A stretch of DNA of 45,855 bases from a virus: the IMG/VR virus record IMGVR_UViG_3300014494_000003. The stretch is one strand, 5' to 3'. Under the pieces are notes generated by a model, which had not been told where the DNA came from, made no database searches, and worked only from the letters and a program-made list of their open reading frames with translations. Positions 1,132 through 44,839 of the stretch are shown here, in pieces (within the stretch, counting starts at the first letter, position 1; every line of letters starts with the position of its first letter). A program made the translations under genes and the position numbers.

Positions 1132-1944
1132 ATGAAACTGGAGGATCTGCGCCAGCTCGCGTACCTGGACCTGGACGAAGATCCGGCCAGCCCGAGGTAC
1201 TACACGGACGCCGAGGTCCGCGACGCGCTCAATGAGGCGGAGCGGTTCTTCTGCCTGCTGACGCTCTGCCTGGAGACGACCCGGCCTTTCGCGCTGACGC
1301 CTGGCGTGCGGTTCTACCCGCTGCTGCGCGAGTGGCACGACTGGATTGCGCCGCTGCGCGTGCGCTTGTCGAGCGACGTGGCGGAAGGGATCACCGCGCT
1401 CGACGACGGCGTCACCGCCGACACGGCCATGCCGAACGAGCAGGCGCATCCGGGCCTGGTCGCTTCAGCGACGCCAAAACTAGCCCCCTCGACCATGAGC
1501 GAGATGTGGGGTCTCAATTCCGACTGGCTGACCGCCACGGGCTACCCTGAGCGCTACGGATGTCTGGGCTTCGATCTGCTGTTTCTCGACAAGGTGGCGA
1601 CGTTGGGCGGCGTCAAGCTGCTGATCACCTACGCGCGGTCGCCGCGGCCGATGGTGCTGGACACCGACGCGCCCGAAATCCTCGAGGCCGACCATCACGC
1701 GCTGGTGGATGGCGCGGTCTCGCTGCTGCGGATGAAGGAAGGCGGCGACGAGCTGGCTGGCGCCATGGCCGGACTCGGCCGCTACCTACAGGTGGCCGCG
1801 AAGCGTGCGGCCCAGGTGCGGGGCCGCAGCCTGGCGCAACGCTACGACAAGCTCCCGCTGGAGCTGGAACGCTACGACTTCTCGCGGCTGCTCAAGATCC
1901 GGCCCGACCTGGCGCCGCATCGCAAGGGGGTTCCGAATGGTTGA
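1132..1944 (+). CDS. Hypothetical virion protein (adaptor or tail-associated by position)
   Basis: ATG preceded by gagggg. Third codon positions are G/C-rich. It lies between the tailspike and the large tail protein. The N-terminus (YYTDAEVRDALNEAERFF) resembles the N-termini of 1937..2551 and 43979..44839. Confidence 0.6.
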   Translation: MKLEDLRQLAYLDLDEDPASPRYYTDAEVRDALNEAERFFCLLTLCLETTRPFALTPGVRFYPLLREWHDWIAPLRVRLSSDVAEGITALDDGVTADTAMPNEQAHPGLVASATPKLAPSTMSEMWGLNSDWLTATGYPERYGCLGFDLLFLDKVATLGGVKLLITYARSPRPMVLDTDAPEILEADHHALVDGAVSLLRMKEGGDELAGAMAGLGRYLQVAAKRAAQVRGRSLAQRYDKLPLELERYDFSRLLKIRPDLAPHRKGVPNG

Positions 1945-2551
1945 CCTCAGCCTGTGGCTCCCTGCTCTGTGCGCCCGGCTCAACGCCGCCGGCGTGGCCG
2001 ACCTGGTCTTCTGGACCGAAGCGGAGCTGTACCAGCGCGCCACGGGGGCGCTGCACTCGCTGGCGCGGGAGAGCAATCTGTTCTGCGAAGCCTGCCCGCC
2101 GATCACGTCGGCTGAACCTTTGGTGCCGATCCCGGCTGAGCACCTGGCGCTGTTTCTGGTGGCGCGCGACGGAACCGTGCTGACTCCGGCCAGCGTGGCG
2201 GAACTCGAGGCTCTGGATTCCGACTGGGAAGAGACGGCCGTCTCCGGAGGCGGCAGCGTCACGCACTGGGTGGGCGACTACCTGGGGCTGCGCTTCCTGC
2301 GCTTCTACCCCATCCCGGCGACCTCCGCTGACGTGCTGCTGGTGCGCGCGTGTCTGCCCTCGATCCCCACCGCCAAGTCGGCGGGCGTGGCGATTCCCGC
2401 GCCCTTCGCCGACTACCTGGCGCTGGCGACGCTGCGGGACGCCAGGGCGAAGCAGGGCGACGCGCGGATGCCCGAGGTCGCGCAGCACATCGACCAACGC
2501 CTGAAGCTCTACGACCAGGTGGTGCAGGCGTATTGGGGGGGCGGGTACTGA
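1937..2551 (+). CDS. Hypothetical virion protein, 204 aa
   Basis: Internal ATG of listed ORF 1805..2551, overlapping the upstream stop by 8 nt. Its size and position just before an 828-aa protein recall the small/large tail-tubular pair of T7-like phages. This is inference only. Confidence 0.55.
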   Translation: MVDLSLWLPALCARLNAAGVADLVFWTEAELYQRATGALHSLARESNLFCEACPPITSAEPLVPIPAEHLALFLVARDGTVLTPASVAELEALDSDWEETAVSGGGSVTHWVGDYLGLRFLRFYPIPATSADVLLVRACLPSIPTAKSAGVAIPAPFADYLALATLRDARAKQGDARMPEVAQHIDQRLKLYDQVVQAYWGGGY

Positions 2552-5037
2552 TGCAGACCCAGAGCGAACAGCTTTTGGCGGGCAGCCTCAACCTGCTGCC
2601 TCCCGCCGACCAGATCCCCGACCAGGACGCCATCGCGCTCCAGAACTGGCGCGCCGACCAGGCCGGGGCGCTGCGCTCCCGCAAGGGGAGTGCCGCCGTG
2701 CTGTTCAGCGTGGCCGAGACCGTGCGCGCCATCTTCAAGGCGGCCGGCGCGACAGTGCGGCGCTACTACGCCGCGGGCTCGATGATGTACCGGAACTCGT
2801 CCGCGATCGCGGCGGGGCTGGAGCTGCACCCTCCCAGCATCGCCAGCATGAACGGCTGGGCCTGGATCATGAACCGGGGCCGGCAGATCAAAGACGACGG
2901 GACGCACACCTACGCCTGGACGCCGGCAGCTCCGGATGCCGCGCCGACTGACAGCACCGCAAGCGGCGGATTGCTTAACGGCGACGTGAGTTACTGGGTT
3001 ACCTGGGACACCGACGCGGAGCACGAATCGAACCCCTCGCCCGAGTTGGCGCTCACCGCCCTAGTGAATCAGAAGGTCACCATCACCCGGCCTTCGGCAG
3101 TGCCCGACGCGCAGGTTACCACCTGGAACCTGTACCGCATGGACGACGTACTGCCCGAACCGTACAAGGTGAATTCGGCGCCGATTCCGCTGGCGACGAC
3201 GACGTTCCTGGACGATGGGGCAACCGGCACGCTCTCCGCCGCCGACCTGGCGGGGCGCGGCGAGGTGTTGAGCTTCGACCACGATCCGGCGCCAATGGCG
3301 CGCGGCTGCTGCCAGTTCCAGAGCAAGATGCTGGCCTGGTCCACGGCGGAACATCCCAACCGGCTGTATTGGTCGATGACCGAGAAGCCCTGGTGTTTCC
3401 CCGGCTCGGCCGACGAAGAAGAGGGCAACTGGACGCCGGTAGGTGAAGAGGATGAGGAGTTAGTAACGGTCGCCGACTTCCCCAAGTTGGCCATCCTGCT
3501 CAAGGAGCGGTCCATTTACCGTATGGTGGGCGATCCCGACGAAAGCTGGTCTGAGATCGACCGCATCGCCCCCGACATCGGCCTGGTGGGTGAGAAGGCC
3601 TGGTGTCATGCCGGCGGGCGCGTTTACCTGCAAGGCGGCGAAGGCATCTACCGCGTCGACGGCGAGACCTGCGTCAAGGTCTCGCCCCAGCTCGACCCGA
3701 TCTTCAAGGGCGACGCGCTCTGGTTGGGCGCGCTGCCCGCGCTGCCCATCAACCCGGATCCGGTTATTCGGGCGCTTTCGTCGATGGAGTACATCAATGG
3801 GCGGGTGTATTACTCCTACGCCGACAGCTCGGCCACGCTGCCGAACACGACGCTGGTGTTCGACGAAGCCGGCAACCGCTGGTATTCGGATTCCCGCGCC
3901 TTCGACGCCCTCTACTACGAAGGCCAGGGCGGGCTGCTGCTGGGGGCCATCCGGGGCTCAGTCTTCCCGCTGGAGTCGGGGCTCACCGACAACGGCCTGG
4001 CCATCGACCTGGTCTACCAGTCGCGCTACTACAACCAGCAGGCGCCCAACAACGACAAGACCTACGTCGATCTGACCATCGAGCACAACACGGGCGGGCG
4101 CGTGCTCACCGTGCTGGCCTACCTCGACAACGGCAGCCGCGTCGTCAACCTGGGCACGATTTCGTCCTTGGTCCGCACGTCTACGCCGTTCCGCTTTAAT
4201 GAGGGCGACGGCGAGACGGCTCGGAACGTCTCGATCCGGCTCATCAGCAGCGGCACCGGCAGCATTGACGCCGAGATTTTCGGGATCGGTTTGCAGTATT
4301 ATGTGAACCCCCCTGACGGGCTGACCTGGGACTCCGGCAAGGTGACGCTAGACCCGCTCAAGGTGCAGCAGGTGGACTGCGTCGCCTTCGACGTGGAGGC
4401 GACGGCGGGCGCGGAGCTCGACTGGAAGGTCAGTACAGACCTCCCGGGCGACGAGCTGCAAGTGCGGGACAGTGGCAGCACCGGAGAGGACGGCACGGCC
4501 ACCATCCGGCGTTTCACGATGCCCCTGTTGGCGGTACGCGAGGCGCGCTGGCTGCGCGCGGTGCTGACCTCGGCGAAGCCCTTTCAGATTCGCGGCGCCT
4601 ACATCCACGCCCGCACGATTGGGGTCTACCTGGCCGGGACCCAGGACGTCTATCGCAGCGATCAGCTCACGCTCGGCACGGCGATGCTCAAGCTGTGGCG
4701 CGAGATGCGGGTGTACTGCGACACCGATGGCACGCTGACCGGGACGTTCCTCACGGATCTGCCCGCCGAGAGGATGGACGCGCGAGCCTCCGGCCCCCTC
4801 GACACCACGGTTACGACTCCGGGGGCGCGGTGGATGCGGTTGCGGTTCGACGGCTCGACGCGCGGCCGCGCGGGTGAGGTGCAGCTCCGCGCCAGCGCTC
4901 CCGCCCGGATCTACGCCCTGCAGGTGCGCGCCAAGGTGCTGGGGGCGGGCCTGACGGGCTGGCAGTGGGTGGACGTGCCCCTCGCGGAGACTTCGCCGGC
5001 GTTTCAATGGGTGGCGCTCGGGGGAGGCTCTCAGTGA
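2551..5037 (+). CDS. Large tail structural protein, 828 aa (possible nozzle / tail-tubular-B analogue)
   Basis: ATG 2551 overlaps the upstream TGA (ctgATG). The frame is long and clean with G/C-rich third positions. Assignment is by position in the tail module; no diagnostic motif was recognised. Confidence 0.6.
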   Translation: MQTQSEQLLAGSLNLLPPADQIPDQDAIALQNWRADQAGALRSRKGSAAVLFSVAETVRAIFKAAGATVRRYYAAGSMMYRNSSAIAAGLELHPPSIASMNGWAWIMNRGRQIKDDGTHTYAWTPAAPDAAPTDSTASGGLLNGDVSYWVTWDTDAEHESNPSPELALTALVNQKVTITRPSAVPDAQVTTWNLYRMDDVLPEPYKVNSAPIPLATTTFLDDGATGTLSAADLAGRGEVLSFDHDPAPMARGCCQFQSKMLAWSTAEHPNRLYWSMTEKPWCFPGSADEEEGNWTPVGEEDEELVTVADFPKLAILLKERSIYRMVGDPDESWSEIDRIAPDIGLVGEKAWCHAGGRVYLQGGEGIYRVDGETCVKVSPQLDPIFKGDALWLGALPALPINPDPVIRALSSMEYINGRVYYSYADSSATLPNTTLVFDEAGNRWYSDSRAFDALYYEGQGGLLLGAIRGSVFPLESGLTDNGLAIDLVYQSRYYNQQAPNNDKTYVDLTIEHNTGGRVLTVLAYLDNGSRVVNLGTISSLVRTSTPFRFNEGDGETARNVSIRLISSGTGSIDAEIFGIGLQYYVNPPDGLTWDSGKVTLDPLKVQQVDCVAFDVEATAGAELDWKVSTDLPGDELQVRDSGSTGEDGTATIRRFTMPLLAVREARWLRAVLTSAKPFQIRGAYIHARTIGVYLAGTQDVYRSDQLTLGTAMLKLWREMRVYCDTDGTLTGTFLTDLPAERMDARASGPLDTTVTTPGARWMRLRFDGSTRGRAGEVQLRASAPARIYALQVRAKVLGAGLTGWQWVDVPLAETSPAFQWVALGGGSQ

Positions 5038-6398: not shown

Positions 6399-6431
6399 GG
6401 GGGCTGTTGCCGATTGAAGGAAGAGGGGGAT

Positions 6432-6938
6432 ATGGGGATCACGGTCGCATCGCCGTTTCCGGCTTGGGCGCTGCCCCAAGTGTGGGCCTGGATCGAGTCG
6501 TTCCGAGACCGCGTGTGTGACGACTACGCCCCGAAGTCCCTGGATGAATTCCTGGCGGAGTGGGAACAACGGCAGCCACGGGAGCGGAGCTGGGCGGTCT
6601 ACGAAGAAGACGAGATCGGCGGCGTGATCGCCGTGCAGACCGTCAACCCGGATGCGGCGCTGTGCCGCTGCTACTTCAAGCGGGCGGCCTGGTCGACGGC
6701 GGTGGTCGTGCCGGCGCTGCGGGCGGTCTACGCCGAGGTATTCCAGGGCTCCACGGTCAAGATCAGCCTGCCGGTGTTCGAGGACAACTGGGATTTGCGG
6801 CGGCTGGCGCTGAACGCCGGCGCCGTCGAGGAGACGCCGAAGCATCGGCCTTTGCGCGACGCGACCAGGCGCGACGGGAAGTTGATCGGGGTTCGGATTC
6901 TATCGGTTTTCAAGGGGGTGAGCCATGGGGTTGCTTGA
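6432..6938 (+). CDS. GNAT-like acetyltransferase-fold protein (degenerate)
   Basis: ATG 6432 follows gaaggaagaggggga. The pattern WAVYEEDEIGGVIAVQ...ALRAVYAEVF...VKISLPVFEDNWDLRRLALNAGAVEE...RDGKLIGVRILSV matches the strand/helix layout of RimJ/L-type GNATs. The Q/RxxGxG/A loop is not obvious. Confidence 0.45.
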   Translation: MGITVASPFPAWALPQVWAWIESFRDRVCDDYAPKSLDEFLAEWEQRQPRERSWAVYEEDEIGGVIAVQTVNPDAALCRCYFKRAAWSTAVVVPALRAVYAEVFQGSTVKISLPVFEDNWDLRRLALNAGAVEETPKHRPLRDATRRDGKLIGVRILSVFKGVSHGVA

Positions 6939-7575: not shown

Positions 7576-8823
7576 ATGCCAACGAACAACCCGATCATCG
7601 ACGGGATCATGGACGGGCTCCTGATCCGCGAGCACATGGCGAAGATGACGCAGGACCAGGGCGACTACGAACACCGCATGGCGGCGGACCAGCGCGCGCA
7701 GCAGGAGTTTGAGAACAACATCGTCCAGCAGCGATGGCAGCACCAGCACCAGCAGACTCAGGACCAGCTTCAGGACATCAACACGCGCCTGGCGCTGGGC
7801 ACGAACCCGGGCCTGATCCAGGTGCAGCCAGGCGAGGACACGCGCACGGTGCAGTTGCCGCTCGACGAGACGATGCAGAAGGCCTACGGCGGCATCCCTG
7901 CGCTTTCGATGAGCGTGCCGATCGACAACACCGTCGAGTATGGCGGCCGGCGCTACGCCATGCGCAGCGCGGAGGAACTCGAAGCCGACAAGATGCGCGA
8001 TCTGAACGCGACCAGCGCGCTGAAGCTGAAAGACACACTGGCGGCGAAGAGCCTGGAGCAACAGATGAACCAGGTGTATGTGCCGGGCATCGGCTACGTG
8101 GACAAGAGCGTCGCTCCGAGCTTCATCAACTCGGCGTCGCGGGAGAAGGAGGGCGCGGCGAACCGAACCAACGCCGTCACGGTCGCCAACATCCGCGGCT
8201 CGGCGACGCGCGACACAGCGGCGCGCCGCGACCAGTTGACCCCCAGCGGGGTCGAGTCTGTCCAATCCAACATCCGTAGGGATTTGGCCGCTCAAGAGCG
8301 GGCCGAAGCGCCGCTGGAGCAACTGCGCCAGCGGATCAAAGCCAAGGGGGATGGTAAAGCACTCAACTACACGACCTTCGATAGAGACGGCCTTCCGGCT
8401 ACTGTCAGTCTCACGTCAGAGGAGGCCACACAACGGCTCGGGGAAGTGGAGAACTCGCTGGCCGGGATTCGCAAGAAGAAGGCGCAGATCTACCAGCGCA
8501 TGCTGAACCACGGCTTCATCACTAGCGACGACTACGAGCGCATGGTCGGCGATTTGGGTCTGCCACCCGAACAGAAGACGCCCTCGCCGGCTCCCCAGTC
8601 GCACGCGCCCACAGCCGCTCCCACGCCGGCGCCGACGCCTGCGCCGAAACCGGCGGCAGCTCCGGCGGCCAATCGCCCCGCCAGCGCCGCCTCAACCGCG
8701 AGGCCGCCGCAGGCTGCGCTCGACGCCATTCCGCCCGGGCAGACGGCGACGTTCCGCAATGGCCAGGTGTGGACGAAGAACGCCGCTGGCCAGGTTACCC
8801 AGATCCAACCGCAGGCCCAGTGA
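7576..8823 (+). CDS. Gln-rich coiled-coil internal virion / ejection protein (candidate)
   Basis: ATG 7576. The protein has a QQ/HQ-rich helical N-terminal half and a Pro/Ala-rich tail. Its stop overlaps the start of the giant ORF. Confidence 0.5.
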   Translation: MPTNNPIIDGIMDGLLIREHMAKMTQDQGDYEHRMAADQRAQQEFENNIVQQRWQHQHQQTQDQLQDINTRLALGTNPGLIQVQPGEDTRTVQLPLDETMQKAYGGIPALSMSVPIDNTVEYGGRRYAMRSAEELEADKMRDLNATSALKLKDTLAAKSLEQQMNQVYVPGIGYVDKSVAPSFINSASREKEGAANRTNAVTVANIRGSATRDTAARRDQLTPSGVESVQSNIRRDLAAQERAEAPLEQLRQRIKAKGDGKALNYTTFDRDGLPATVSLTSEEATQRLGEVENSLAGIRKKKAQIYQRMLNHGFITSDDYERMVGDLGLPPEQKTPSPAPQSHAPTAAPTPAPTPAPKPAAAPAANRPASAASTARPPQAALDAIPPGQTATFRNGQVWTKNAAGQVTQIQPQAQ

Positions 8824-11800
8824 TGCCGAGCGAATGGGACATCGTCGATGTGTCGAAGCCGCCCGCCAAGCCCGACCCTTGGGCGGTCGTCGCGATCTCC
8901 CCATCCGCCACGCCGGCACCGCCCGCCGCTGACTCGAGCCCCAACGTCCCCGGTGCCGAGAAGACCGGCCTGCCCGGTCTGCCCGCCATGCCCGTCTCGG
9001 TGACCGAGGAGCCGACGCTCCTCGAGCGCATCGGCAACGTGTTCGGTAAGGGCGCGCAGAATGCTGCCGACTTTCTGCTGCAGAACGCCAAAATGGGCAT
9101 TGCGCCAGGCGCGCCCGTCGCTGCTGCGGCCCCTCCGCCGGGAATTACCGCGAAGCAGGCGACGCAGGCGGCCAAGACCTACGAGACCCCGATGCTCCCG
9201 GTCTCCGAGTTACTCCCCGAGAGTCCCAACGACGGGAACGTGACTAAGTTCGCCAGGGGGGCGCTCCAAGGGGCCGAGGGGCTGACCACTCCGGTCAACC
9301 TGGCGCTGATGGCGGCGCTCGGCGCGGCCGGAGCTACGGCCAGGGCGTCAGTTGAACCGGCAGTACAGCAAGGCTGGCATTTGGCCGACGCGGCGCTTTC
9401 CGCCTACTTCTCGGGCCAGGCCGCGCACGGATTGTATGGTGCCGGCAAGGATGCCGTGGAAGCGGTCGGCAAGGGCGACTGGGGCAAGGCCGCGACCGAC
9501 CTCGGTTTGGGCACGGTGGACGGTCTGATCGCCTACTTGGGAGCGCGCAATGCCTTCAAGAACGTGCAGGGCGCGGCGGAGATCGGCCGGACGCAGCGCA
9601 TTCTCCAGGAGAACCTGAACCGGCGGGAGGCCGCGCGGCGTGCGGCTGAACCCAAGCCTGCCACGGAGTCGATTCCGCCTGCTTCCGGCGCAGTTCCCAC
9701 CGCGACGCGGCTGCTGCCTCCTGGGGAAGCGCCCGAAGCCAAGCCGCCAGCGCCGCCGCCTGAACTGCCGGGAGGGAAGAAGCTGCTGGCCCCCGGAGAA
9801 GCGCCGCTGCCCGAACCGCCGCCTGAAGTGCCTGCCGGATGGCAGATCGTCAAGAGCGAGCCCGCGCCTGAAGTCGAGCCAGCGGCTCCTCGCTCGGGGA
9901 GCGCGTGGCCGCAGGGGATCGCGCCGCCCGTGGGCGTCGAGGTGTTCGACCGCGCGGCGGAGCTGGCCCGGAGCCGAGGCAGCATTTCGCCTATCGTGCT
10001 TCAGCGTGAGCTGGAGATTCCACAGCTCGAGGCTCAGGGACTCTTCCGCCGCCTCATTGGCCAGGGGGTCGTCGACCGGATTGGACGCATCCCCGCGCCG
10101 CCGGAGGATTCCGGACCGGCAGCGGCCCCGCCCCAGAGTGGAGCAGCCAAGGGCGCGCCCGCGATCCAGCCGAAGCCCGACTCAGTCGATTACTACGACC
10201 AGGCTGTCAGCCTGGCGCGCCAGAACGGCGCGATCAGCCGCACCGGTCTGCAGAACGCGTTCGGCCTGAACCGGGACGACGCGCAGTCGCTGCTCAGCCG
10301 GATGATCCAGGGCGTCAACGGCGAGCCGGGCGTGGTCTCGCCGAACGGTAGGTTGATCGCTCCGCAGAAACCCGCTGTTGCGCCGGGCGGCCAGCGGGAG
10401 CTGCCGCTTGTGGCGCAGGGACCGGCGCAGGCGAGCCCGGAGAGCCCGGTCGAGGCTCCTCCATCCCCCGAAGCTCCCCCGCTTCCGCCAGCGGCCCCGC
10501 AGCCGCCGCAAGCGACGCTCTACGACCGCGCCGTCGAGTTCGGCGCGAAGTACGGCAAGGTCAGCCAGGCCGGTCTGCGGCTGCACCTGGGCATTAGCGC
10601 CAGTCGCGCCGACTCGCTTCTGACGCAGTTGTCGCAAGCGGGAAAGATCGACCCGAACACCAAGAAGTGGATCGGCGGCAGGACCGCCCCCATCGGCAAG
10701 CCGGCTCCTCCGCAGATTCTCCCCATAGACAACCGCCCGCCCATGACCTCGGCCCAGCCGGGCGCGCCCGTGACTCCGCTCCCGGCGCCGGCGCCCGCGC
10801 CCGCGGGCGATTTCGAGGGCGCGGCCGACGATCTTCCGCCCGAGCGGGTGGGCCGCACGGAAGAGGTCAGCACGCCCGAGGGGACGAAGGCGCAGGCGCA
10901 ATGGCGGGTCGTCGATCTCGCCCACGACAACCTGCTCACGTCGCACAGTTACGCCGGGGTGGAGAACCCGGAGTATCCGCAGGAGTATCAGAACCGCGAC
11001 CGCTCGCGCATCGCCAGCGAGACGCAGATCCGCGGCATCGCCGCCAACCCGGTTGCCAAGCGGCTCAGCCAAAACTACCTGACGAGCGAGGGCGCGCCGA
11101 TCTACGCCAACCGCGACGGCCGGCGGACGGTCATCTCCGGAAACGGGCGGACGGAAGCGATCAAGCTGGCCTACAAGCAAGGCACCGCCGCGGGCTACCG
11201 CGCGGGCCTGCCCGAGGAGCTGACCGCCGCCGGGATCGATCCGAAGGTGCTCGAAGGAATACAGCAGCCGATGCTGTCCAGGGCGCTGGTCGGCAAGATG
11301 CCGCTCGGCCGCATCGCCCGGGAATCCAACGCGCCCAGCGTCGCCGAGCGCAGCCCGGTCGAGCTGGCGCGGGCGGATGCCAAGCGCCTCACCGGCGCGC
11401 TGATGGAAGCCTTCAAGCCAGGCGAGGACGGGCGGATCGTCACCACCGAAAACTGGCCCTTCATTCAAACCTTCTTCCGCGAGCTGCTCACCGCCGCGGA
11501 GCGGGGGAAGTACACGCTCGGCAACGGCGGCATCAACCAGGCCGGCATCGCGCGCATTCGCAACGCGGTTTTCGCCAAAGCCTACGGGGAGTCGGCCGCG
11601 CTCGAAAACGTGGCCGAGGATCCCGACGACAATGTGCGCAGCATCACCGCCGCCATGCTGCGCGCGGCTCCGTCGTTTGCGCGCGTGGGGGAAGGCGTCG
11701 CCGCGGGCACGCTCCACGATCTCAACATCGCGCCCGACGTTGCCGCCGCCGCCGGCAAACTGTCGAGCCTCCGCGCGCAGGGCACCACGGTCGAGGACTA

Positions 11801-14800
11801 CCTGAACCAGGAGGAGCTGTTCGCGCCCGAACTGTCCCCGCTGGGCCGCGAGATGCTTCGCGTCTTCGGCGTCCACAGCCGCAGCTCCGCCCGGCTGGCG
11901 GAGATTCTGACTAACTACGCCAGCGCCGTCGAGGCGCTCGGCAGCCCTCAGCAAGCCAGCTTGCTGGGTGATACAATTCCGACCAGGGCCGAAGTTCTCG
12001 AGGCGGCAGTCGAGGCCACCGAGGCGAGAGCCAAGCTCCTGGCTGAGCAGCGAAAGGCCAAGAAAGATGTACAGTCCCAAGCACGTAACGACGCGGCCGG
12101 CAGTGGTGGCGAAGTTGGTGACGTTGATGGACAAGGTCCATCAGGGCCAGACCGCGCAGCAGATCCGGCAGGAGTTCGAGCAGGAGCAGAAGCTCCGCCA
12201 GTTCAATCCGCCCCCCGGCAGCAAGCCCCAGTAGCGCCGTCGCCCCGACCTCTAGAACCGCAGCAACCGCCCGCGGCTACGACTGCGGCCTGGCGAGCGG
12301 GTGCTTCGGCGTTGCCTATCGACGTTCAGGAGATTCGTGATTGGTTGCGGGACAACGAAGGGACCGGGAAGCCTGCGACCGTTGAGTACGCGAGGCAGTA
12401 CCTGGCTGGGGCGGACTCTCAGGCCCGGCCGATGCCGCAAGCCGAACCGGCGGCGCAGCCGAAGGCGGAGGCATCCGCACCTGCCCCGCGCTTGCCCCAC
12501 GAGCTCGCCAGTGCGAAGCCGAACTATGCCTTCGGAGCGAAGGAGTTCGCCCTCGATTTCGAGAGCGACATCGACAAAGCGGCTTTCATCGCCGCGCAGT
12601 TTAAGCCATCGAAGGCCGATGCGCAGTACGTTGGCTTCGTTCGCCAGGCGACGGGGCTGTCGACGCAAGCGGTTCGATCCGCCGGTGTGCGCGTGCGCTC
12701 GGCCATCAAGGAGTTGGCGCGTGACGCAGAACCGGGAGTGCTGCGCGTGCCGGACGTCTTGGGGCGGCGCCTGAAGCCACCAGGGGGCGAGACATTCTTC
12801 GCCCCGAAGTTGAAGGATGCCCGCGGCGCGCGAAGCCCGCAAGAGTACTTCGCCGCGGCCGACTCCCGATACGAGGCGTTGCTGCGGGATCGACCTGGCC
12901 ATATTTACGTGAACGCCCCGGCCCACGGGTTAATTGTGAGCGCGCTGCGCCACGCGGGCCTTCCCGCGCAGAACTTCGCCGGCCTCACGCTGGGACCGGC
13001 GGATGCCAACTTGCTGTACCGCGCCCTCGGGGAGTTTGAACAGACCGAGCAGGAGCCCGGCGTCCGCGCCGCGATTGGTCAGATGCGCGCGGCCATGCGC
13101 CAGGCGGCTGGCGAGAGCAAGACTCTGACTTTCGTAAGGAGCGGCCCCGACGTCTCCGCCATGGAACGGCGGACCGCGCGGCGGGAGGAGGAATTCCATC
13201 GGCAACAAATTCTGCGCACGCGCGGGAAGGTGCTCGAAGGTCATGTCGACTCACAGCGCCTCAGTCAAAACCAAACGGTTCACAAAGGCCTGAGGGCCAT
13301 AGAGCGTGACCGCCACGAGACCGGGCAGCGCGCTTATGTGGAACTGGCTGCGAGCTTGGCCAGCGGGCAGTGGGGAGATCTCGGGCTGACGCGAGAGGAG
13401 GCCATCGATGCGCTCCACGCTTACATCGGCGAGATCGTCCGGCTCCACGGAGACCAGGCAGGAGGTATTATCAACCATGTCCACCCAGCAATCCGAAACG
13501 CTGTCCAGGAACGACTGGCGGCATCCGGACAACCTGCAACAGTGGCTGCGCGAACGCTACGGCGACGGCCAGGTCACGACGCCGGGCCAGGTAGCGGCGG
13601 ACAATTTTACCGACCTCTTCGAGGCGTACCGGAGGGGCGGCCAGAAGACCTTCCGAGCCAAGTTCGATCAGATCTTTCCGCCCGAACAGCACCCGTAGAA
13701 CACGCCGGGCCCGGAACTCTGGACCTATTCGGAGAAGAGGCCAACCAAACCAGCCGCGAAGCCGCCAAGAGCGATGCCGCCAAACTCGAAGCCGACCGGC
13801 TCACCGCCGAGTTCGGCAGCGCGCTGAATCGCAATAACCTCCGCAAGAAACTGAAGCCCGGCGAAAAGCCGCAACAGGGCGACCTGTTTGGAGGGATGCC
13901 GGAGAAACCCGCGCAGGGCAAGCTACTGTTTCAGAAGGGCGGGACTGGTCCGCACGGTCCGATCTTCACCGAGTTCCGGCATGACGCCGCCGGCGCGATC
14001 GCCAAGCTGCGCCAGGCGCAGAGCGGCGAAGCCGTGGCGGCGCTGCACCATCCCGCGGTCGGGGACATTGATCTGATTTGGGGCGAGAGCGGCACTAGTC
14101 CGGGAAACGGCTACGGACTGGCAAAGCTGGCGAAATGGCATCCGGAAATCCTGGACAACCTGCAGGAGACGCTGGACACGATGACCGCTGCGGCGCGCAA
14201 CGAGAACACGGTTCAATTGGACAGCGCGACGCACCACGCTGTCGTCCGCAGAAATTGGAAAGGGAACCCTAAGACTTGGCTGCTAACGGCCTTCGAAAAG
14301 AAGCAGCCGTCACTAGCCGGAAGGACGATGGACATTTCCGGCACGCGAGAGGCGCGGCGGGATGACACAGCTCCCCCGCCGAGTGGCGGCACTTCCAGTA
14401 TGGCCCCAACCGGAGAGGGCGGCAAGCGGGAAAAGACCTCAGATTTCTGGAAAGACGAGAGCGGCGAATTCGACCTGGCGAACCTGCGGGCAGGGCTGCG
14501 CGAGAAGTTCGGCGAAGCGGCGAACCAGGCCAACTACACCGGTCTGGGAGCCAAGGACATATTCCTACGCAACTTGTCGCAATTGGAGAAAACTAGCTCC
14601 GCGGGCCACGCCGCAGCGGTCCGTGCGGCCGCCAGCAAGGGACAAGTGGCAGCACTGCTGCGCGCCGCCGTTCCGCGCATCGAGGCGGCCATTGGCAAGC
14701 GCGGGCCGACGTGGACCGAGTTCAGAACGGCGTTGATCGAAAGCCGGCTGCGGGGGATCCGCGAGCGGTGGCGCGCCATGGCCGAGCAGGCTCTCGACAT

Positions 14801-16943
14801 GAGCCCGGCGCAGATGCAGGCCAGCTTCGACAATGGCGTGCTGACGCTGCTGGAGAACATCCAGGACAAGCGAGGCCTCGGGCAAGACTTGGCCGAAACC
14901 GCCGCCGCGATGTTCCAGTCCGCGCAGGAGGGCGACCTGGCGCAGAAGAAACCCGGAGAGCCCGCCTACCCCGTGCTGAGCGAGGGCCCCCACCTGCGGG
15001 CGCTGCGAGACTTTCTCTCGACCACTTACCTCGACGCGGCCGAGTCGGTGGCCGAAGTCTTGCCGGATGAGTTCTTCCATCGTATTACCAGCAGCCCTGG
15101 ATTTGCGCGCGGCCTCGAAGCGTACCGCGAACTGCTCGAGAAGCCGATGGCCGACAATCACGCCCTGAACGAGGGCGTGTTCAGCGATGCTCTGGGCCCG
15201 GTGGGAGCCTACTATCCGCTGGTGCCGGTCACGAGCGCCGAGGCGGCGCAGGCGAAAGCCCCGGGAACGACCTCAGGCTACCGCAAGCCGCGCAACATCT
15301 CCAATGATTTCGCCACGGGCCTCGCGCTCCGGTACGACGCGGGAATGGAGGCGCTGCGCAACCGCTTGACGCGAGCGATCAAAGCTAACAACAAAGCTGC
15401 GCTGATCCAGACGCTGGAAGACGAAGGGCTGCTGCGGAAGATGCGGCCGAACGAAGTAGCGGGGGACGTCATCAACATCGGCGGCGAGGATTTCAAGGCC
15501 GACTACATCAAATCCGAAGGCGTATTGGTTCCGACCTGGCTCCGAAAGGAGCTGGTTCCGATTCTGGAACTCGAAGGCCGGCCGCACCAGCTGGTTCAAT
15601 ATGTCAACCAGGTGATGCAGGTGTTGAACAAACTCTCTCTAGTGGGGCCGCTCAATCTCGTTTACCATGCCACGAACCTGCTGGGGACTTTGACCTTCAA
15701 CACACCTTTCATCCCCGGGTCTGTCCTGGGGGAGAAGGTTGGCAACTCGCCGTTAACAAAACAGTTCTACGCCCTGGTGCGCATCCTTCACACCGACCCC
15801 ACAACCGCGGACGCGGTTGCAGACATGACCGAGATGGCCAAGGTGGGCGCCTTGCCCGACCGCTTCGGCTCGGAGACCTTCTCCCAGCGGTTCGCCGAGC
15901 AACTCGGCGCCGAAGACAAGATGTGGAGGTTCGAAGTGGGCGGTAGGAATCTGGCCCTCCCGAAGAGCGCGGGTCCGATCCTCTTCGGCCCCAAGGGCAT
16001 GGACATTCGGGCGCGCCTGCTGATGTGGCGGATCGCGAAACAACTCCAGCCGCAGGGGAACCCGCAAAGCTGGGCTAGGTCCACGAATCAACTCGGCGTC
16101 TACGTGCGTGGGATGCAGAGCGACATAGAACGCGCGCTGAAGGCGAGCGGTTTCTCTCCGTTCTTCACCGCCGGTTCCACGATGGTGCGCAACGGGATCA
16201 ACGGCTTTCTGGGACGTGGCCCGATCACGAGCGACAAGTTCAGTTATCGACTAAAACAACTACTGACGGGGGGGGCCCCTGCGCTCATCGCCATCTGGGC
16301 TCTGATCAACAAGGCGTACCGGGGCAAGTGGCCCTGGGAAGAGCCAAATTCGAAACTCTTGGCGTTCGCCGTGAAGCCGGCCGACCGCAATTCCGCACTG
16401 GGCCGGGCGCTGTGGGGCTCGAAGCCGGGCACGGCCTACGTGAATCTGGCCTTCATCAATCCGTTGCTGGCGCGCGGCCTGCGCGCACTGGGCATCATGG
16501 ACGCCTACGAGACGCGGCAGCTCGGCGGGTCGTTCGATCAGATCACGAAAGCCGCAGTAAAGGGATCGGCGAATGCGTTTATCGGGCCGGCCGCCGGCCC
16601 TCTGGTGCGGACCGGCATGATCGCCGCGACGGGCCGCGAGCCGTATCTGACGGACGTGCAGGATGTGACCTTCATGCGAGCGGCGGCGAAAAAGCCGGGA
16701 TTCCTACGCAGTCGCGTCGAGTATGGCAAAGAGGCCGCGCTCAGCCTCAATAATTTCTTTGGCAACCTGGCCACGGCTACTGGGATCGGGTACGAAGCGG
16801 AGCGCGCAGCGAAGACCGGTAACGCTGCGTTGCGGATGCTCACCGATCTGGCTGCACCCCGCCTGGTGGGAACGGTTTCGGATCAGTCGGCCAAAGCGAG
16901 ACGGCTGGCCAACGAGCGCCGGGCAGCGGCGCGGGAGCGGTGA
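8823..16943 (+). CDS. Giant polyvalent virion protein, 2,706 aa: 3x FtsK-gamma-like wHTH, a ParB/Srx-like module, a small nuclease-like module and a hydrophobic C-terminal third
   Basis: ATG 8823 overlaps the upstream TGA. There is no frame-0 stop for 8.1 kb. Recognisable modules are separated by Pro/Ala-rich linkers (see findings). The position is equivalent to the ejected core proteins of podoviruses. Confidence 0.7.
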   Translation: MPSEWDIVDVSKPPAKPDPWAVVAISPSATPAPPAADSSPNVPGAEKTGLPGLPAMPVSVTEEPTLLERIGNVFGKGAQNAADFLLQNAKMGIAPGAPVAAAAPPPGITAKQATQAAKTYETPMLPVSELLPESPNDGNVTKFARGALQGAEGLTTPVNLALMAALGAAGATARASVEPAVQQGWHLADAALSAYFSGQAAHGLYGAGKDAVEAVGKGDWGKAATDLGLGTVDGLIAYLGARNAFKNVQGAAEIGRTQRILQENLNRREAARRAAEPKPATESIPPASGAVPTATRLLPPGEAPEAKPPAPPPELPGGKKLLAPGEAPLPEPPPEVPAGWQIVKSEPAPEVEPAAPRSGSAWPQGIAPPVGVEVFDRAAELARSRGSISPIVLQRELEIPQLEAQGLFRRLIGQGVVDRIGRIPAPPEDSGPAAAPPQSGAAKGAPAIQPKPDSVDYYDQAVSLARQNGAISRTGLQNAFGLNRDDAQSLLSRMIQGVNGEPGVVSPNGRLIAPQKPAVAPGGQRELPLVAQGPAQASPESPVEAPPSPEAPPLPPAAPQPPQATLYDRAVEFGAKYGKVSQAGLRLHLGISASRADSLLTQLSQAGKIDPNTKKWIGGRTAPIGKPAPPQILPIDNRPPMTSAQPGAPVTPLPAPAPAPAGDFEGAADDLPPERVGRTEEVSTPEGTKAQAQWRVVDLAHDNLLTSHSYAGVENPEYPQEYQNRDRSRIASETQIRGIAANPVAKRLSQNYLTSEGAPIYANRDGRRTVISGNGRTEAIKLAYKQGTAAGYRAGLPEELTAAGIDPKVLEGIQQPMLSRALVGKMPLGRIARESNAPSVAERSPVELARADAKRLTGALMEAFKPGEDGRIVTTENWPFIQTFFRELLTAAERGKYTLGNGGINQAGIARIRNAVFAKAYGESAALENVAEDPDDNVRSITAAMLRAAPSFARVGEGVAAGTLHDLNIAPDVAAAAGKLSSLRAQGTTVEDYLNQEELFAPELSPLGREMLRVFGVHSRSSARLAEILTNYASAVEALGSPQQASLLGDTIPTRAEVLEAAVEATEARAKLLAEQRKAKKDVQSQARNDAAGSGGEVGDVDGQGPSGPDRAADPAGVRAGAEAPPVQSAPRQQAPVAPSPRPLEPQQPPAATTAAWRAGASALPIDVQEIRDWLRDNEGTGKPATVEYARQYLAGADSQARPMPQAEPAAQPKAEASAPAPRLPHELASAKPNYAFGAKEFALDFESDIDKAAFIAAQFKPSKADAQYVGFVRQATGLSTQAVRSAGVRVRSAIKELARDAEPGVLRVPDVLGRRLKPPGGETFFAPKLKDARGARSPQEYFAAADSRYEALLRDRPGHIYVNAPAHGLIVSALRHAGLPAQNFAGLTLGPADANLLYRALGEFEQTEQEPGVRAAIGQMRAAMRQAAGESKTLTFVRSGPDVSAMERRTARREEEFHRQQILRTRGKVLEGHVDSQRLSQNQTVHKGLRAIERDRHETGQRAYVELAASLASGQWGDLGLTREEAIDALHAYIGEIVRLHGDQAGGIINHVHPAIRNAVQERLAASGQPATVAARTLRRRPGHDAGPGSGGQFYRPLRGVPEGRPEDLPSQVRSDLSARTAPVEHAGPGTLDLFGEEANQTSREAAKSDAAKLEADRLTAEFGSALNRNNLRKKLKPGEKPQQGDLFGGMPEKPAQGKLLFQKGGTGPHGPIFTEFRHDAAGAIAKLRQAQSGEAVAALHHPAVGDIDLIWGESGTSPGNGYGLAKLAKWHPEILDNLQETLDTMTAAARNENTVQLDSATHHAVVRRNWKGNPKTWLLTAFEKKQPSLAGRTMDISGTREARRDDTAPPPSGGTSSMAPTGEGGKREKTSDFWKDESGEFDLANLRAGLREKFGEAANQANYTGLGAKDIFLRNLSQLEKTSSAGHAAAVRAAASKGQVAALLRAAVPRIEAAIGKRGPTWTEFRTALIESRLRGIRERWRAMAEQALDMSPAQMQASFDNGVLTLLENIQDKRGLGQDLAETAAAMFQSAQEGDLAQKKPGEPAYPVLSEGPHLRALRDFLSTTYLDAAESVAEVLPDEFFHRITSSPGFARGLEAYRELLEKPMADNHALNEGVFSDALGPVGAYYPLVPVTSAEAAQAKAPGTTSGYRKPRNISNDFATGLALRYDAGMEALRNRLTRAIKANNKAALIQTLEDEGLLRKMRPNEVAGDVINIGGEDFKADYIKSEGVLVPTWLRKELVPILELEGRPHQLVQYVNQVMQVLNKLSLVGPLNLVYHATNLLGTLTFNTPFIPGSVLGEKVGNSPLTKQFYALVRILHTDPTTADAVADMTEMAKVGALPDRFGSETFSQRFAEQLGAEDKMWRFEVGGRNLALPKSAGPILFGPKGMDIRARLLMWRIAKQLQPQGNPQSWARSTNQLGVYVRGMQSDIERALKASGFSPFFTAGSTMVRNGINGFLGRGPITSDKFSYRLKQLLTGGAPALIAIWALINKAYRGKWPWEEPNSKLLAFAVKPADRNSALGRALWGSKPGTAYVNLAFINPLLARGLRALGIMDAYETRQLGGSFDQITKAAVKGSANAFIGPAAGPLVRTGMIAATGREPYLTDVQDVTFMRAAAKKPGFLRSRVEYGKEAALSLNNFFGNLATATGIGYEAERAAKTGNAALRMLTDLAAPRLVGTVSDQSAKARRLANERRAAARER
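12067..12234 (+). CDS. Nested +1-frame small ORF, 55 aa, inside a linker of the giant ORF
   Basis: ATG preceded by gaaagg..agaaag, ending in TAG. By hand count, 50 of 55 codons end in G/C in this frame, against about 20 of 56 in the giant frame over the same span. Confidence 0.4.
   Translation: MYSPKHVTTRPAVVAKLVTLMDKVHQGQTAQQIRQEFEQEQKLRQFNPPPGSKPQ
13477..13698 (+). CDS. Nested +1-frame small ORF, 73 aa, inside a second linker of the giant ORF
   Basis: AGGAGG at 13460..13465, then an AT-rich spacer gtattatcaacc, then ATG; it ends in TAG. By hand count, 61 of 73 codons end in G/C here, against 32 of 74 in the giant frame. Confidence 0.45.
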   Translation: MSTQQSETLSRNDWRHPDNLQQWLRERYGDGQVTTPGQVAADNFTDLFEAYRRGGQKTFRAKFDQIFPPEQHP

Positions 16944-16947
16944 TGCG

Positions 16948-17202: not shown

Positions 17203-17206
17203 GGCG

Positions 17207-17416: not shown

Positions 17417-17456
17417 CGGCCGGCGGCGAGTTCCCTGCCCTGGGCTTCGCGCTGCA

Positions 17457-17933: not shown

Positions 17934-18041
17934 CTCGTGCTCCTCTTGGGGTGTTCGAGTGACTCCGCTATCGCGTGGCTCTTCCGCCACAAGTTGCAGG
18001 GCGAGGCTTTGTCGTTTATTTTCATTGGTTCGAGCCCTCCA

Positions 18042-18176: not shown

Positions 18177-18243
18177 TTTCCACCTCCCTTGATACGCCCG
18201 CTTGGGCGTTCGTGTAGCTTTTCCGCCACGTAGTTGCTGCAGA

Positions 18244-42468: not shown

Positions 42469-42810
42469 ATGACGGGACAGCTTCATTTCAAAATCGCCGC
42501 CGGGGCGTCGCTCTCGGGGGCCTGGATGGTGGGGAACCGCGTGCCTGTGCGCATCGAGATGCCCGCAGCATGGGACGCGGCCAACCTCACCTTCCAGACC
42601 TCGCATGACGGCGTCACCTTCCAGAACAAGTACGACGGAATGGGCGCGGGGGCGGAGTTCACGGTAGGCGCGGCAGCCGCGCGCAACATCGACCTGAACC
42701 CTGCGGATTGGATCGGCGTGCGCTGGCTCAAGATCCGCAGCGGCACGGCGGGCACGCCCGTCACGCAGAGCGCGGCGCGGGACATCTACCTCATCACTCA
42801 GGAGGTGTAG
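42469..42810 (+). CDS. Small beta-sandwich-like structural protein, 113 aa
   Basis: ggagg lies upstream of the ATG. Confidence 0.5.
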   Translation: MTGQLHFKIAAGASLSGAWMVGNRVPVRIEMPAAWDAANLTFQTSHDGVTFQNKYDGMGAGAEFTVGAAAARNIDLNPADWIGVRWLKIRSGTAGTPVTQSAARDIYLITQEV

Positions 42811-42812
42811 CC

Positions 42813-43982
42813 GTGGCCTCACGAGCAACCCTACAAGCTCCGCGCGTGGTGCGCAGCGGGCTGGTGGCCGGCTGGCGCATGGGCTGGGACAACCTGCTCC
42901 GCTGCGCCTGCGAACTGGATAACACGACTTGGTGGACCGGGTCCAGCGTCAGCGTCACGCCGAACTCGGTAGCCGCACCGGACGGCACGATGACGGCTGA
43001 CACCATCACGCCGTCGAGCTCAAGCGGCTACCTGTTCCAGAAAGACACGCGCTGGAACTACGCCAACGTGGTCCTCACCTTCAGCGTTTGGCTGCGGGTG
43101 GCCAGCGGGACGAAAACCGTTACCATTGGCGGGCTGGACAATGGCGGCGGGCGCTTCACGAATAACGTCACGGTGACGACGACGTGGCAGCGGTTCTCTA
43201 CGACGGGCTCGACCACCTACTCAACCGAGTTCTGGGGGGCCTTCATCCAATCGCAGAACAACACCACGCCGTTCTATGCCTGGGGCGCCCAGATGACCGA
43301 AGGCAGCGCCGTGCTGGGGCTGCAAAGCAACGGCGCCGCCCTGACCATATCCGACTTCAGCGGCCTGGGCAACAGCCTCACCGTTCCCGCGACTCCCTAC
43401 AACCCCTACACGCGCCTGGCGGGCTTCAGCTTCGTCGGCCAGGCCGGCGTTGATCCTCACGACTACGCCGACGCGGCGGTGGAGTCGCTGAGCGGGGTCA
43501 AGCTGCTCTGCTCGAGTGCGCAGGCCTGGACGGCGGTCGTGGCGGCGCAGGTGCCGGCGGCGCAGCCGCGCGTCAGCTTCGGGACGCTCCTGGGCCGCGC
43601 CAGCGACACAGCAGCCAGCCGCACCTTCGAGCTGGGCGCGACGAACACCGGCCCGGCCTTCTTCGCTTACCTGCGGGGGAGCCTGACCGCCTTGCCCGCG
43701 AACGACGCGCTCTGGCACGTCCACACGATCCGCTGGGACGGGGCGAGCGCGAGCTATTGGATGGACCGAGGCGCGGCCGTGGCCTGCAACGTGGGCGCGG
43801 CGGCCGAGGAAACCGGGCAGCGGATCATCGTAGGCGGCCGAACCAACGGCACCAAGAGCTGCATGTCCGGCATGGTCGGCTGCGTTCTGGTCTACAACCG
43901 TGCGCTGGGCGAGCGCGAGATCCACCGCAACTACAAGGCGCTGGCGCGCGAGCTGAAACCGCGAGGGGTGACTCTGCTATGA
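42813..43982 (+). CDS. Lectin-fold protein: N-terminal carbohydrate-binding-like domain plus C-terminal LamG domain
   Basis: GTG 42813 lies 7 nt after GGAGG. It contains TPNSVAAPDGTMTADTI, and a C-terminal GCVLVYNRALGEREIHRNY, which is the LamG 'vriYnRALs..Ei' signature. Confidence 0.6.
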   Translation: MASRATLQAPRVVRSGLVAGWRMGWDNLLRCACELDNTTWWTGSSVSVTPNSVAAPDGTMTADTITPSSSSGYLFQKDTRWNYANVVLTFSVWLRVASGTKTVTIGGLDNGGGRFTNNVTVTTTWQRFSTTGSTTYSTEFWGAFIQSQNNTTPFYAWGAQMTEGSAVLGLQSNGAALTISDFSGLGNSLTVPATPYNPYTRLAGFSFVGQAGVDPHDYADAAVESLSGVKLLCSSAQAWTAVVAAQVPAAQPRVSFGTLLGRASDTAASRTFELGATNTGPAFFAYLRGSLTALPANDALWHVHTIRWDGASASYWMDRGAAVACNVGAAAEETGQRIIVGGRTNGTKSCMSGMVGCVLVYNRALGEREIHRNYKALARELKPRGVTLL

Positions 43983-44839
43983 CCTGGGGCGAGATCCGGC
44001 TGCTGCTGGTGCGCTTCCGCGCGGGCATTGACGTGGCTCAAGTGACCTCCTGGATGCAGGCGCGCTATGAGCTGATTCTCGACTTCCACGCCTGGAAGGG
44101 GCTCGAGGTCGAGACCTACCTGCAGACGGTCGCGGTGTATCAGACGGGCACCGTCAACGTCACGCAGGGCTCGACGGCGATCACCACGACGGGCACCTGG
44201 ACCGGCTTCACCGGCCGCAAGATCCGCGTGGGCGGGCGCAGTGAGTTCTACACCATCACTTACTCAGGCTCGGCCTGGTCGCTCGACCGCGTGTACGAAG
44301 GCGACAGCGACGCGGCGGCGAGCTACTACGTTTTCCAGCACGTCTACGCGCTGCCCGCCGACCTGAAGACCCTCACGGCGCTGGACTCACCGGACACCGG
44401 CCTGCCTTTGGCGGACTGGACCCGGGAGCAAATGCGCGAGGCGGTGGGGCGCGGGGCCACGCTGGGGCGGCCCGCGGCCTGGGCGCTGACCGACGCCGGC
44501 GACGTGGAAATCTGGCGGGTGCCGGAGGCCTCGACGGGCATACCGCTGCGCTACATCAAGACGGCTCCGGCCTTCACCGGAACGAACACGCGCGACTCCC
44601 CCCTGTCCTGGGTGCCGGCCAACACCATCATGGAGGGAGTGCGCGCGGACATCCTCTTCGCGCTCGAAGACTACAACGGCTCCGACCGCAAGGAGCGGGC
44701 CTTCGCCGAACAGCTCGCCACGATGATGGGCAACGAAGCCATTCGCAAGGGCCCGCGCCCGCTGCGGATGGCCAGCGAGTACACACACCACCGGGTAGAG
44801 CGCGGCCTGCCGCGCAGAGGGAACTTCAGACTGCCATGA
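43979..44839 (+). CDS. Hypothetical virion protein, 286 aa
   Basis: It has ATGA overlaps at both ends. It lies just upstream of the tailspike. Confidence 0.55.
   Translation: MTWGEIRLLLVRFRAGIDVAQVTSWMQARYELILDFHAWKGLEVETYLQTVAVYQTGTVNVTQGSTAITTTGTWTGFTGRKIRVGGRSEFYTITYSGSAWSLDRVYEGDSDAAASYYVFQHVYALPADLKTLTALDSPDTGLPLADWTREQMREAVGRGATLGRPAAWALTDAGDVEIWRVPEASTGIPLRYIKTAPAFTGTNTRDSPLSWVPANTIMEGVRADILFALEDYNGSDRKERAFAEQLATMMGNEAIRKGPRPLRMASEYTHHRVERGLPRRGNFRLP

Follow-up and report, generated by a model that had tools for sequence, protein, structure and literature searches.

A probable small gene embedded in the +1 frame of a giant polyvalent virion-protein gene of a bacterial virus

Introduction

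Some viral genes lie wholly inside a longer gene and are read in another frame. The embedded spanin architecture, of which Rz1 inside lambda Rz is an example, is thought to arise partly by stop-codon loss, which extends the upstream gene over the downstream one (PMC6139136). In hepatitis B virus (HBV), a short gene, S, is proposed to have lain between two genes that were later fused by reading through it, giving the polymerase spacer; by the codon-usage criterion for overprinting, the frame nearer to genome usage is the ancestral one (PMC8227390). In this study, we describe a small open reading frame (ORF), here called sORF1, that is nested in the +1 frame of a giant ORF in IMG/VR virus record IMGVR_UViG_3300014494_000003. 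The analysed stretch of DNA, 45,855 nucleotides (nt) in full, is referred to as the window. ORFs that lie inside longer ORFs are not reported by gene callers.

Programmed frameshifts are another way in which phage structural genes yield overlapping products, as in lambda G/GT, T7 10A/10B and the +1 shift of Listeria phage PSA. These genes have a conserved slip site, and their second frame has neither a start codon nor a ribosome-binding site. The giant ORF studied here resembles the genes for polyvalent proteins, the class to which DdrB of phage P1 belongs. P1 DdrB is processed before packaging (Iyer et al. 2017, PMC5512222). In the same survey of polyvalent proteins, overlaps, embedded ORFs and frameshifts are never mentioned (0 occurrences).

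In our view, sORF1 probably is a genuine gene whose protein product is under selection; it lies in the +1 frame of a giant polyvalent virion-protein gene, exactly at the end of the ParB module. As such, it is a newly found and previously unannotated case of an embedded out-of-frame phage gene, which is a known kind.

Results

The host of sORF1 is a giant ORF at 8769..16943 (2724 amino acids, aa), which encodes a protein of the polyvalent virion or ejection type and is also the host of a second nested ORF; all window features given here lie on the plus strand. A DdrB-like ParB module occupies 10842..12065 of this gene. It consists of a ParB domain at about 10878-11282 and a conserved helical extension, and its 3' end forms the junction with sORF1. 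sORF1 (12067..12234) opens with an ATG at 12067-12069, one base past the last aligned codon of the module, and closes with a TAG at 12232-12234. It encodes 55 aa (MYSPKHVTTRPAVVAKLVTLMDKVHQGQTAQQIRQEFEQEQKLRQFNPPPGSKPQ) and, as expected of an embedded gene, lies wholly inside the giant ORF, on the same strand but in another frame, with a start and a stop of its own. A preliminary description of the locus, made from the letters of the sequence, had given this start, stop and frame together with both translations, and all of them are exact in the sequence.

The codon signal changes frame over this segment. Codons ending in G or C account for 50 of the 55 in sORF1 and for 20 of the 56 in the giant frame (12066..12233), and these counts, which had been made by hand, were unchanged on recount. 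In sliding position-specific G+C profiles, the third-position G+C content (GC3) of the giant frame falls from about 0.9 to about 0.36 over 12040-12300, and that of the +1 frame climbs to at least 0.9; the switch at sORF1 is sharp. Measured against synonymous codons resampled from the usage of the giant ORF itself, codon choice in the overlap scored z = -7.0 when read in the giant frame and z = +1.05 when read as sORF1. The giant-frame linker over sORF1 (12066..12300) is rich in G, A, P, D and Q; it is kept open and its amino acids are unconstrained. The modules downstream of the overlap have normal codon usage in the giant frame (frame 0) of the window. That third positions of frame 0 have only about 36% G+C in the overlap, in a genome with a mean GC3 of 0.84, requires constraint on them as second codon positions of sORF1. 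The same asymmetry between the giant frame and the sORF recurs in seven relatives of the locus (L010, L011, L012, L019, L020, L034 and L041; the L numbers denote loci).

IMG/VR contains one close relative, L001, which is the same contig as L009 and L011 and measures 46,110 bp. A metagenome scan with the C-terminal 199 aa of the ParB module returned 53 loci with 25-75% identity. The module is 74-76% identical at the aa level to those of L001, L010 and L011, and the alignments extend up to query residue 199, which corresponds to position 12065. L010 and L011 are independent assemblies from other samples, and their sORF has the same ATG, the same frame and a position-conserved stop. Its length is 55 codons in the window and 46 codons in both L010 and L011, and the differences are in-frame. 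These assemblies bear on the possibility of an assembly or sequencing artefact, in which two compensating 1-nt indels would conceal a true giant frame that reads the sORF sequence. The sharp frame switch and a homopolymer of six C at 12211-12216 would suit such an error. We give it almost no credence, since L010 and L011 keep both frames and the position of the +1 stop despite their in-frame indels and numerous substitutions, and the same nested architecture is present in dozens of metagenomic contigs and a Brevibacillus genome. A Joint Genome Institute (JGI) contig, L068, is also 100% identical across the region, though it may not be independent.

Conservation of sORF1 extends to L010, L011, L012, L032, L093 and others. 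More distant relatives, including genomes of 40-50% G+C and a Brevibacillus prophage, have at this junction a +1 ORF that starts with ATG and runs for 37-60 codons, and many of these ORFs carry [KR]-x-R-P-x-V-V-x-x-L followed by a basic tail. The preliminary description had named stops in the +1 frame of relatives as contrary evidence, and no such stops interrupt it where relatives have this linker architecture. An equivalent +1 ORF is missing from those relatives whose C-terminal domain is a different one (ending ...AAECALLNG*). The downstream modules vary: the window and L010 have one in common, L011 and L012 another, and in L032, L069 and L093 the ParB-module gene is unfused, so that frame 0 ends about 60 nt after the sORF. 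By this distribution, the sORF travels with the ParB module and not with the downstream modules. Downstream of the ParB-module gene, the L032/L069/L093 clade has genes for an alpha/beta-hydrolase and a resolvase, a context unlike that of the podovirus-like window.

The giant frame has a short conserved motif of its own at the junction, ...[TS]-x-[LI]-F-x-G-Q-G-M-G-G..., found for example in L017 at about 2650-2720, in L018 at about 4540-4600 and in L012 at about 4560-4600. The relatives without the sORF retain a giant-frame ...D-L-F-K-T-P... at the junction, and the window, L010 and L011 have lost the junction motif. The first 10 or so sORF codons appear dual-constrained in many relatives, because the codons of the junction motif overlap those of the N-terminal R-F-S of the sORF. 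The motif could be a processing site.

The two readings of the overlap were compared on the same DNA. Peptide conservation was higher in the +1 frame than in frame 0 for window-L011 (z = 21.3 vs 7.4), window-L012 (5.6 vs 0.3) and window-L032 (3.5 vs 1.7). Over 171 pairs, mean peptide z was 1.81 in the +1 frame and 0.73 in frame 0, and values above 3 were reached in 34 and 13 pairs, respectively. In nucleotide alignments that were built without peptide guidance, the share of differences falling on frame-0 third positions dropped from 54% in the 120 codons upstream, which served as the control, to 30% in the overlap (p = 9e-11). The rate at these third positions was 0.20 in the overlap against 0.40 in the control for window-L011, and 0.19 against 0.68 for L046-L048. 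The rate is thus halved or more, and a merely unconstrained linker is therefore excluded.

The preliminary description had proposed that homologous contigs be aligned and constraint compared in both frames, and the alignments show a constrained sORF. In six pooled pairs, the rate was 0.50 for changes synonymous in the sORF and nonsynonymous in the giant frame (pNS), 0.215 for changes nonsynonymous in both (pNN) and 0.24 for changes nonsynonymous in the sORF only (pSN). This two-frame classification gives an omega of about 0.43 for the sORF and about 0.9 for the linker in frame 0. When the placement of the differences was randomised, aa identity of the sORF was above expectation in 10 of 11 pairs, among them all three of the window clade (P = 0.013 for window-L011, 0.006 for window-L010, 0.004 for L010-L011 and < 0.0002 for L032-L093). 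Frame 0 had no excess identity in 10 of the 11 (P = 0.16-0.997); the exception, L017-L024, was marginal (P = 0.03). In the reverse shuffle, the sORF peptide was held fixed, its codons were shuffled and the probability that frame 0 stays open was recorded. An open frame 0 was unexpected in 14 relatives with GC contents of 40-60% (P = 0.001-0.044); the value for the window, P = 0.29, is uninformative alone.

In the window clade and several others, it is the sORF1 peptide, and not the giant-frame linker, that is preserved by selection. Both frames are maintained, the sORF for its sequence and the giant frame for its continuity, and both products are probably made from the overlap. The central claim of the preliminary description, which placed the coding signal of a giant-ORF linker in a nested +1 ORF, is thus borne out by the codon usage and by the comparative data.

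Constraint on a nucleic-acid element such as an RNA structure, an internal promoter or a packaging-related site, instead of on a peptide, would likewise reduce synonymous variation in frame 0. However, the variation has coding periodicity, with differences most frequent at sORF position 3, then 1, then 2 (15/12/27 at positions 1/2/3 in L032-L093, and 20/11/29 in a further count), and randomised placement indicates that aa identity is specifically spared. A promoter and terminator scan of 11700-13900 found no promoter-like site and no excess of terminator-like sites. An element of this kind is a very improbable explanation.

As the preliminary description had noted, GAAAGG precedes the ATG of sORF1. 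This Shine-Dalgarno (SD)-like motif is located at 12052..12057, 9 nt before the ATG, and is weak; the window gene at 41438 uses GAAAGG as well. When ranked against the out-of-frame internal ATGs of the same ORF, SD-like strength upstream of the sORF ATG was in the top 10% for 12 of 19 relatives (binomial p = 2.6e-8). The +1 ATG arises from a NAT codon followed by a G-initial codon, and the giant frame encodes D, N, H or Y there, depending on the relative. Ten of the 19 relatives have a +1-frame stop within 0-7 codons before the ATG, and in 9 of these ten the stop and the ATG have no other start codon between them. Because the ATG is conserved, SD-like motifs are enriched and +1 stops lie just upstream of the ATG, independent initiation is favoured, and sORF1 is probably made in this way and not by frameshift entry.

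Frameshift entry was among the explanations put forward in the preliminary description. A programmed +1 shift near 12060 that terminates at the TAG ending at 12234 would yield a short ParB isoform with an sORF1 tail beside the full-length protein, and it, too, predicts that purifying selection acts on +1 codons. No +1 stop occurs in the 52 codons that precede the ATG in the window, and the AAG AAA G right before the ATG could in principle allow re-pairing of tRNA-Lys. Since P1 DdrB is known as a shorter processed form (PMC5512222), a short ParB product is plausible. However, 11900-12240 contains no in-frame slippery heptamer of the form X XXY YYZ, which agrees with what the preliminary description had reported, and even L011 does not share the AAA G before the ATG; among the relatives, too, the sequence upstream is not conserved. 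The +1 stops shortly before the ATG leave no entry from upstream in 10 of 19 relatives. A shift would need neither a maintained ATG nor enriched SD-like motifs, yet both are seen, and the position of the ATG is conserved across changing giant-frame residues. In L032 and L093, where frame 0 itself ends about 60 nt past the sORF, a short isoform would have no purpose, yet the sORF is strongly conserved. We regard a frameshift as quite unlikely, and the proposal of +1 recoding is not sustained.

Several observations weigh against sORF1 as a selected gene. An open, ATG-started +1 ORF is not significant given the giant-frame amino acids. In a null that shuffles synonymous codons with the giant-frame protein fixed and counts ATG-started +1 ORFs of at least the observed length, P was 0.49 for the window and 0.03-0.8 per locus, and the Fisher combined value was 0.05 over 20 relatives. 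The +1 frame is open by default because +1 stops need NTA or NTG codons followed by A or G, which are lacking in the hydrophilic linker; after this null, ORF length and openness were dropped as proof of sORF1. In the low-GC relatives L027, L021, L048 and L049, codon choice favours frame 0. The window-L011 pair alone does not separate pNN from pNS (0.29 vs 0.30; third class 0.22), the pairs of relatives are phylogenetically not fully independent, and homology to sORF1 is not demonstrable for the most distant +1 ORFs. The duplex of the window GAAAGG with the anti-SD has -3.2 kcal/mol and ranks at 0.55 among the out-of-frame internal ATGs of the giant ORF. In the giant frame, a conserved ...V-E-G/E... 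motif overlaps the SD-like motifs, which may partly be its by-products. Six sORF peptides gave nothing above threshold and nothing below E = 0.006 in Pfam and PHROGs, and sORF1 had no Foldseek match in the PDB. No free-standing homolog of sORF1 was found either in a word-indexed search of 5.8 billion proteins with a 10-sequence profile or in an exhaustive HMMER search of 1.84 billion representatives; these searches returned only nested copies on truncated contigs (P0001, P0002 and P0004).

Some of these observations would fit a non-functional by-product or relic, in which the +1 frame is open for lack of NTA and NTG codons and the codon usage is the fading imprint of a swallowed, unexpressed gene. 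Such a reading agrees with the openness expected from the linker composition, with the lack of a family, fold or free-standing homolog in the searches, with the weak SD of the window and with the ambiguous codon signals of the low-GC relatives. A relic would drift, but in 10 of 11 pairs the differences avoid changing the +1 peptide, and these pairs span clades whose ParB modules are about 30-50% identical to that of the window. Moreover, frame-0 third positions evolve at no more than half the control rate, omega differs between the sORF and the linker as described above, and unconstrained third positions would not remain at 36% G+C in a 66% GC genome. We therefore judge a relic to be unlikely and keep to sORF1 as a selected gene.

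The sORF1 peptide is basic, with an isoelectric point of 10.0 (10.3-12.0 in the relatives). Cys is absent from sORF1 and its relatives, and sORF1 has no hydrophobic signal segment. The predicted structure is a helical hairpin (H11-25/H30-46) followed by a Pro-rich tail, with a mean predicted local distance difference test score (pLDDT) of 77.8, and 87-92 over residues 11-40. The identity of sORF1 as an Rz1-like o-spanin was considered and ruled out: there is no Cys or lipobox, and the host gene encodes a ParB/PBECR1 polyvalent protein among virion genes.

A second nested ORF, sORF2, occupies the next inter-module linker of the giant ORF. It lies at 13477..13698 in the +1 frame and encodes 73 aa followed by TAG. 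Its ATG is preceded at a distance of 11 nt by a strong SD sequence, AGGAGG (13460..13465). G or C ends 61 of its 73 codons, compared with 32 of 74 in the giant frame, and a second dip in giant-frame GC3 at 13450-13750 matches its position. Three helices are predicted for sORF2 from the single sequence (pLDDT 69). At the sORF2 junction of L002, which is 38% identical to the window in the preceding module, there is an ATG-started +1 ORF whose motif resembles that of sORF2 (QQIQWFLERH as against NLQQWLRERY; pattern QQ-W-[LF]-x-ER). A homolog search with sORF2 returned only itself, and Foldseek against the PDB gave only matches with E > 4.

Across the 32 genes of the window (10,194 fifty-codon windows; mean GC3 0.84, sd 0.09), GC3 falls below 0.5 in just four regions, two of which are sORF1 and sORF2. 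The other two are 2362-2580 and 43787-43978. In each, a listed ORF (2350..5037 and 43757..44839, respectively) runs over the 3' end of the high-GC3 ORF before it (1805..2551 and 42708..43982). Most probably, neither of these two is a nested gene: the start codon of the listed ORF has been placed too far 5', inside the true upstream gene.

Public gene calls of sORF1 were found only where a contig end truncates the giant gene. On L068 (JGI 3300037105, Ga0395709_0007887), a contig of 6.3-6.4 kb that is 100% identical to window 11957-18234, the JGI caller reported sORF1 (55 aa) and a 1503-aa gene that starts from the ATG equivalent to window 12432. sORF1 was called there because the contig end truncates the giant ORF. 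L068 was dropped as a confirmation of sORF1, since a contig 100% identical to the window adds nothing independent. None of the GenBank phage records inspected annotates anything at the sORF1 position. Single-sequence peptide patterns of sORF1 and sORF2 had no matches in IMG/VR, where an alignment-derived pattern re-found the L001 contig only. A scan of genome contigs gave no loci with automatically chosen patterns and 23 loci with a hand-made pattern; these were mostly unrelated or truncated, and only L076, a Brevibacillus migulae prophage region, was informative.

The window is a phage-like genome of about 46 kb with 65-66% G+C, and a DNA similarity search in distant mode against 50,697 GenBank phages found no match. 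The Pfam matches of the giant ORF are ddrB-ParB (PF18763), FtsK_gamma repeats and PBECR1 (PF18809). PF18763 covers aa 704-838 with E = 1e-21 and 77.6 bits, which passes the curated threshold of 27.6, and a match to PHROG 5143 (phrog_5143) spans aa 692-1085. The ParB module is 30% identical to P1 DdrB (tblastn to P1 ddrB, 86% of the query). The PBECR1 nuclease-like domain (14046..14306, aa 1760-1846; also phrog_13543) lies downstream of sORF2, and its match (E = 1e-5) has 26.4 bits, marginally below the 27.6 cutoff. By Pfam and PHROGs, the giant ORF is neighboured by an SU10-type adaptor gene and an internal virion protein gene, and in phage Piluca the homologous module sits in an epsilon15 gp16-like gene that adjoins a gp17-like 'pilot' gene. 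Several unrelated effector-type domains in one giant protein, together with a late or virion gene context, are the marks of a polyvalent protein. Because of its DdrB-ParB, FtsK_gamma and PBECR1 domains, its virion-gene neighbours and its homology to P1 DdrB and the Piluca protein, the product predicted from the giant ORF is what Iyer et al. 2017 (PMC5512222) call a 'polyvalent protein'.

In the N-terminal part of the giant protein (window about 9950-10680, aa about 400-640), three tandem repeats of about 70-100 aa have an FtsK-gamma-like winged-helix signature and are separated by Pro/Ala-rich spacers. The repeat signatures contain GSISPIVLQRELEI, GAISRTGLQNAFGL and GKVSQAGLRLHLGI. The three winged-helix repeats suggest a DNA-binding array in this N-terminal region. 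A 174-aa ORF (6414..6938), located two genes before the giant gene, has a weak GNAT acetyltransferase-like match (E = 0.006), below the Pfam cutoff.

Discussion

The codon usage of the two frames suggests how the overlap arose. sORF1 is probably the older frame and the giant-frame linker the overprinted one, because the codon usage of sORF1 is closer to genome usage (the criterion of PMC8227390). The G/A/P-rich composition of the linker also marks it as the newer reading, because de novo frames tend to be disordered. In the history we propose, the ParB-module gene would have lost its stop codon and been extended over an older downstream small gene. After the stop loss, the ParB gene ends just past the sORF in L032 and L093 and is fused to variable downstream modules in most others, so that L032 and L093 look like the state after stop loss and before fusion. 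This history stays a model, because an unfused arrangement resembling the ancestor was not found among the relatives or in the searches.

Among the explanations offered in the preliminary description, an overprinted small gene is therefore the best supported, with the roles of the frames exchanged: the small gene appears to be the older one, and it is the linker that was printed over it. A further proposal held that three cistrons were fused by stop loss and that both fused and separate products may be made. This agrees with sORF1 as the older frame. However, no free-standing version was found, and in L032 and L093 the ParB gene overlaps the sORF without any downstream fusion.

Two products would come from the overlap. 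One is the long polyvalent protein, whose flexible G/A/P-rich linker would consist of whatever the other frame permits. The other would be a basic protein of about 40-55 aa, whose first helix bears R-P-x-V-V-x-x-L; the protein of the window clade also has a second helix and, after it, a Pro-rich tail. The small protein would initiate independently at the SD-like motif and ATG on the same late mRNA, like Rz1 inside lambda Rz.

As to function, we speculate that the sORF1 peptide may be a module-specific partner of the DdrB-like effector: a chaperone, a packaging aid, or an inhibitor that keeps the effector inert in the producing cell. A partnership with the ParB module is suggested solely by the observation that the sORF stays with this module irrespective of what lies downstream. 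The DdrB-like ParB module belongs to the Dar anti-restriction system of P1, and a dedicated small partner would offer an experimental handle on this module. In relatives that include a Brevibacillus prophage and numerous metagenomic phages, the unannotated peptide is conserved and shows purifying selection.

More broadly, and with considerable doubt, it is conceivable that the inter-module linkers of phage polyvalent virion proteins commonly hide independently translated +1 small genes, each a dedicated partner that moves with the adjacent effector module. If so, the linkers of giant genes would be swallowed partner genes, and pairs of effector and partner would form a hidden layer of the phage counter-defence repertoire. 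The partners might act as inhibitors or immunity factors, chaperones or packaging adaptors, and sORF1 (with DdrB-ParB) and sORF2 (next to the following module) may be the first two examples. Other polyvalent-protein linkers are worth screening in alternative frames, and high-GC genomes reveal such cases through GC3.

The described systems nearest to sORF1 resemble it in different respects. The frameshifted genes lambda G/GT, T7 10A/10B and those of PSA also have two products with a common N-terminal part and overlapping frames in late genes. Unlike these, sORF1 has no slip site; it has a conserved ATG and an SD-like motif, and the +1 frame is often closed just upstream. Lambda Rz/Rz1 is alike in that a larger late gene encloses, on the same strand and in its +1 frame, an entire gene of about 40-60 codons. 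Its two products come from one mRNA by independent initiation, and the same is inferred for sORF1. However, sORF1 is without the Cys, lipobox and signal sequence of Rz1 and has no sequence or fold similarity to it. Its host is a 2724-aa polyvalent virion protein and not an inner-membrane i-spanin, and it overlaps an inter-module linker, not a functional periplasmic domain.

The giant ORF resembles P1 DdrB and other polyvalent proteins in its DdrB-ParB and PBECR1 domains, its late or virion neighbourhood and a module composition that varies among relatives. Unlike the window, P1 ddrB has no sORF1-like +1 ORF at the junction. In P1 (NC_005856, L063), iddB is annotated inside ddrB on the minus strand at 3477-3875. 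As a counterpart of sORF1 it was ruled out, since it lies on the opposite strand and in a different part of ddrB.

The HBV spacer over preS/S differs from sORF1 in virus and host and in size, with an overlap of about 1200 nt as against 165 nt here, and its products are established by experiment, whereas the expression of sORF1 is inferred only. In both cases, however, a disordered linker is read over a shorter gene that has the stronger constraint and genome-like codon usage. The locus described here would thus provide a clean example, from a bacterial virus, of modular overprinting of the HBV-spacer type, in which a linker originates when a small gene that was already present is read through.

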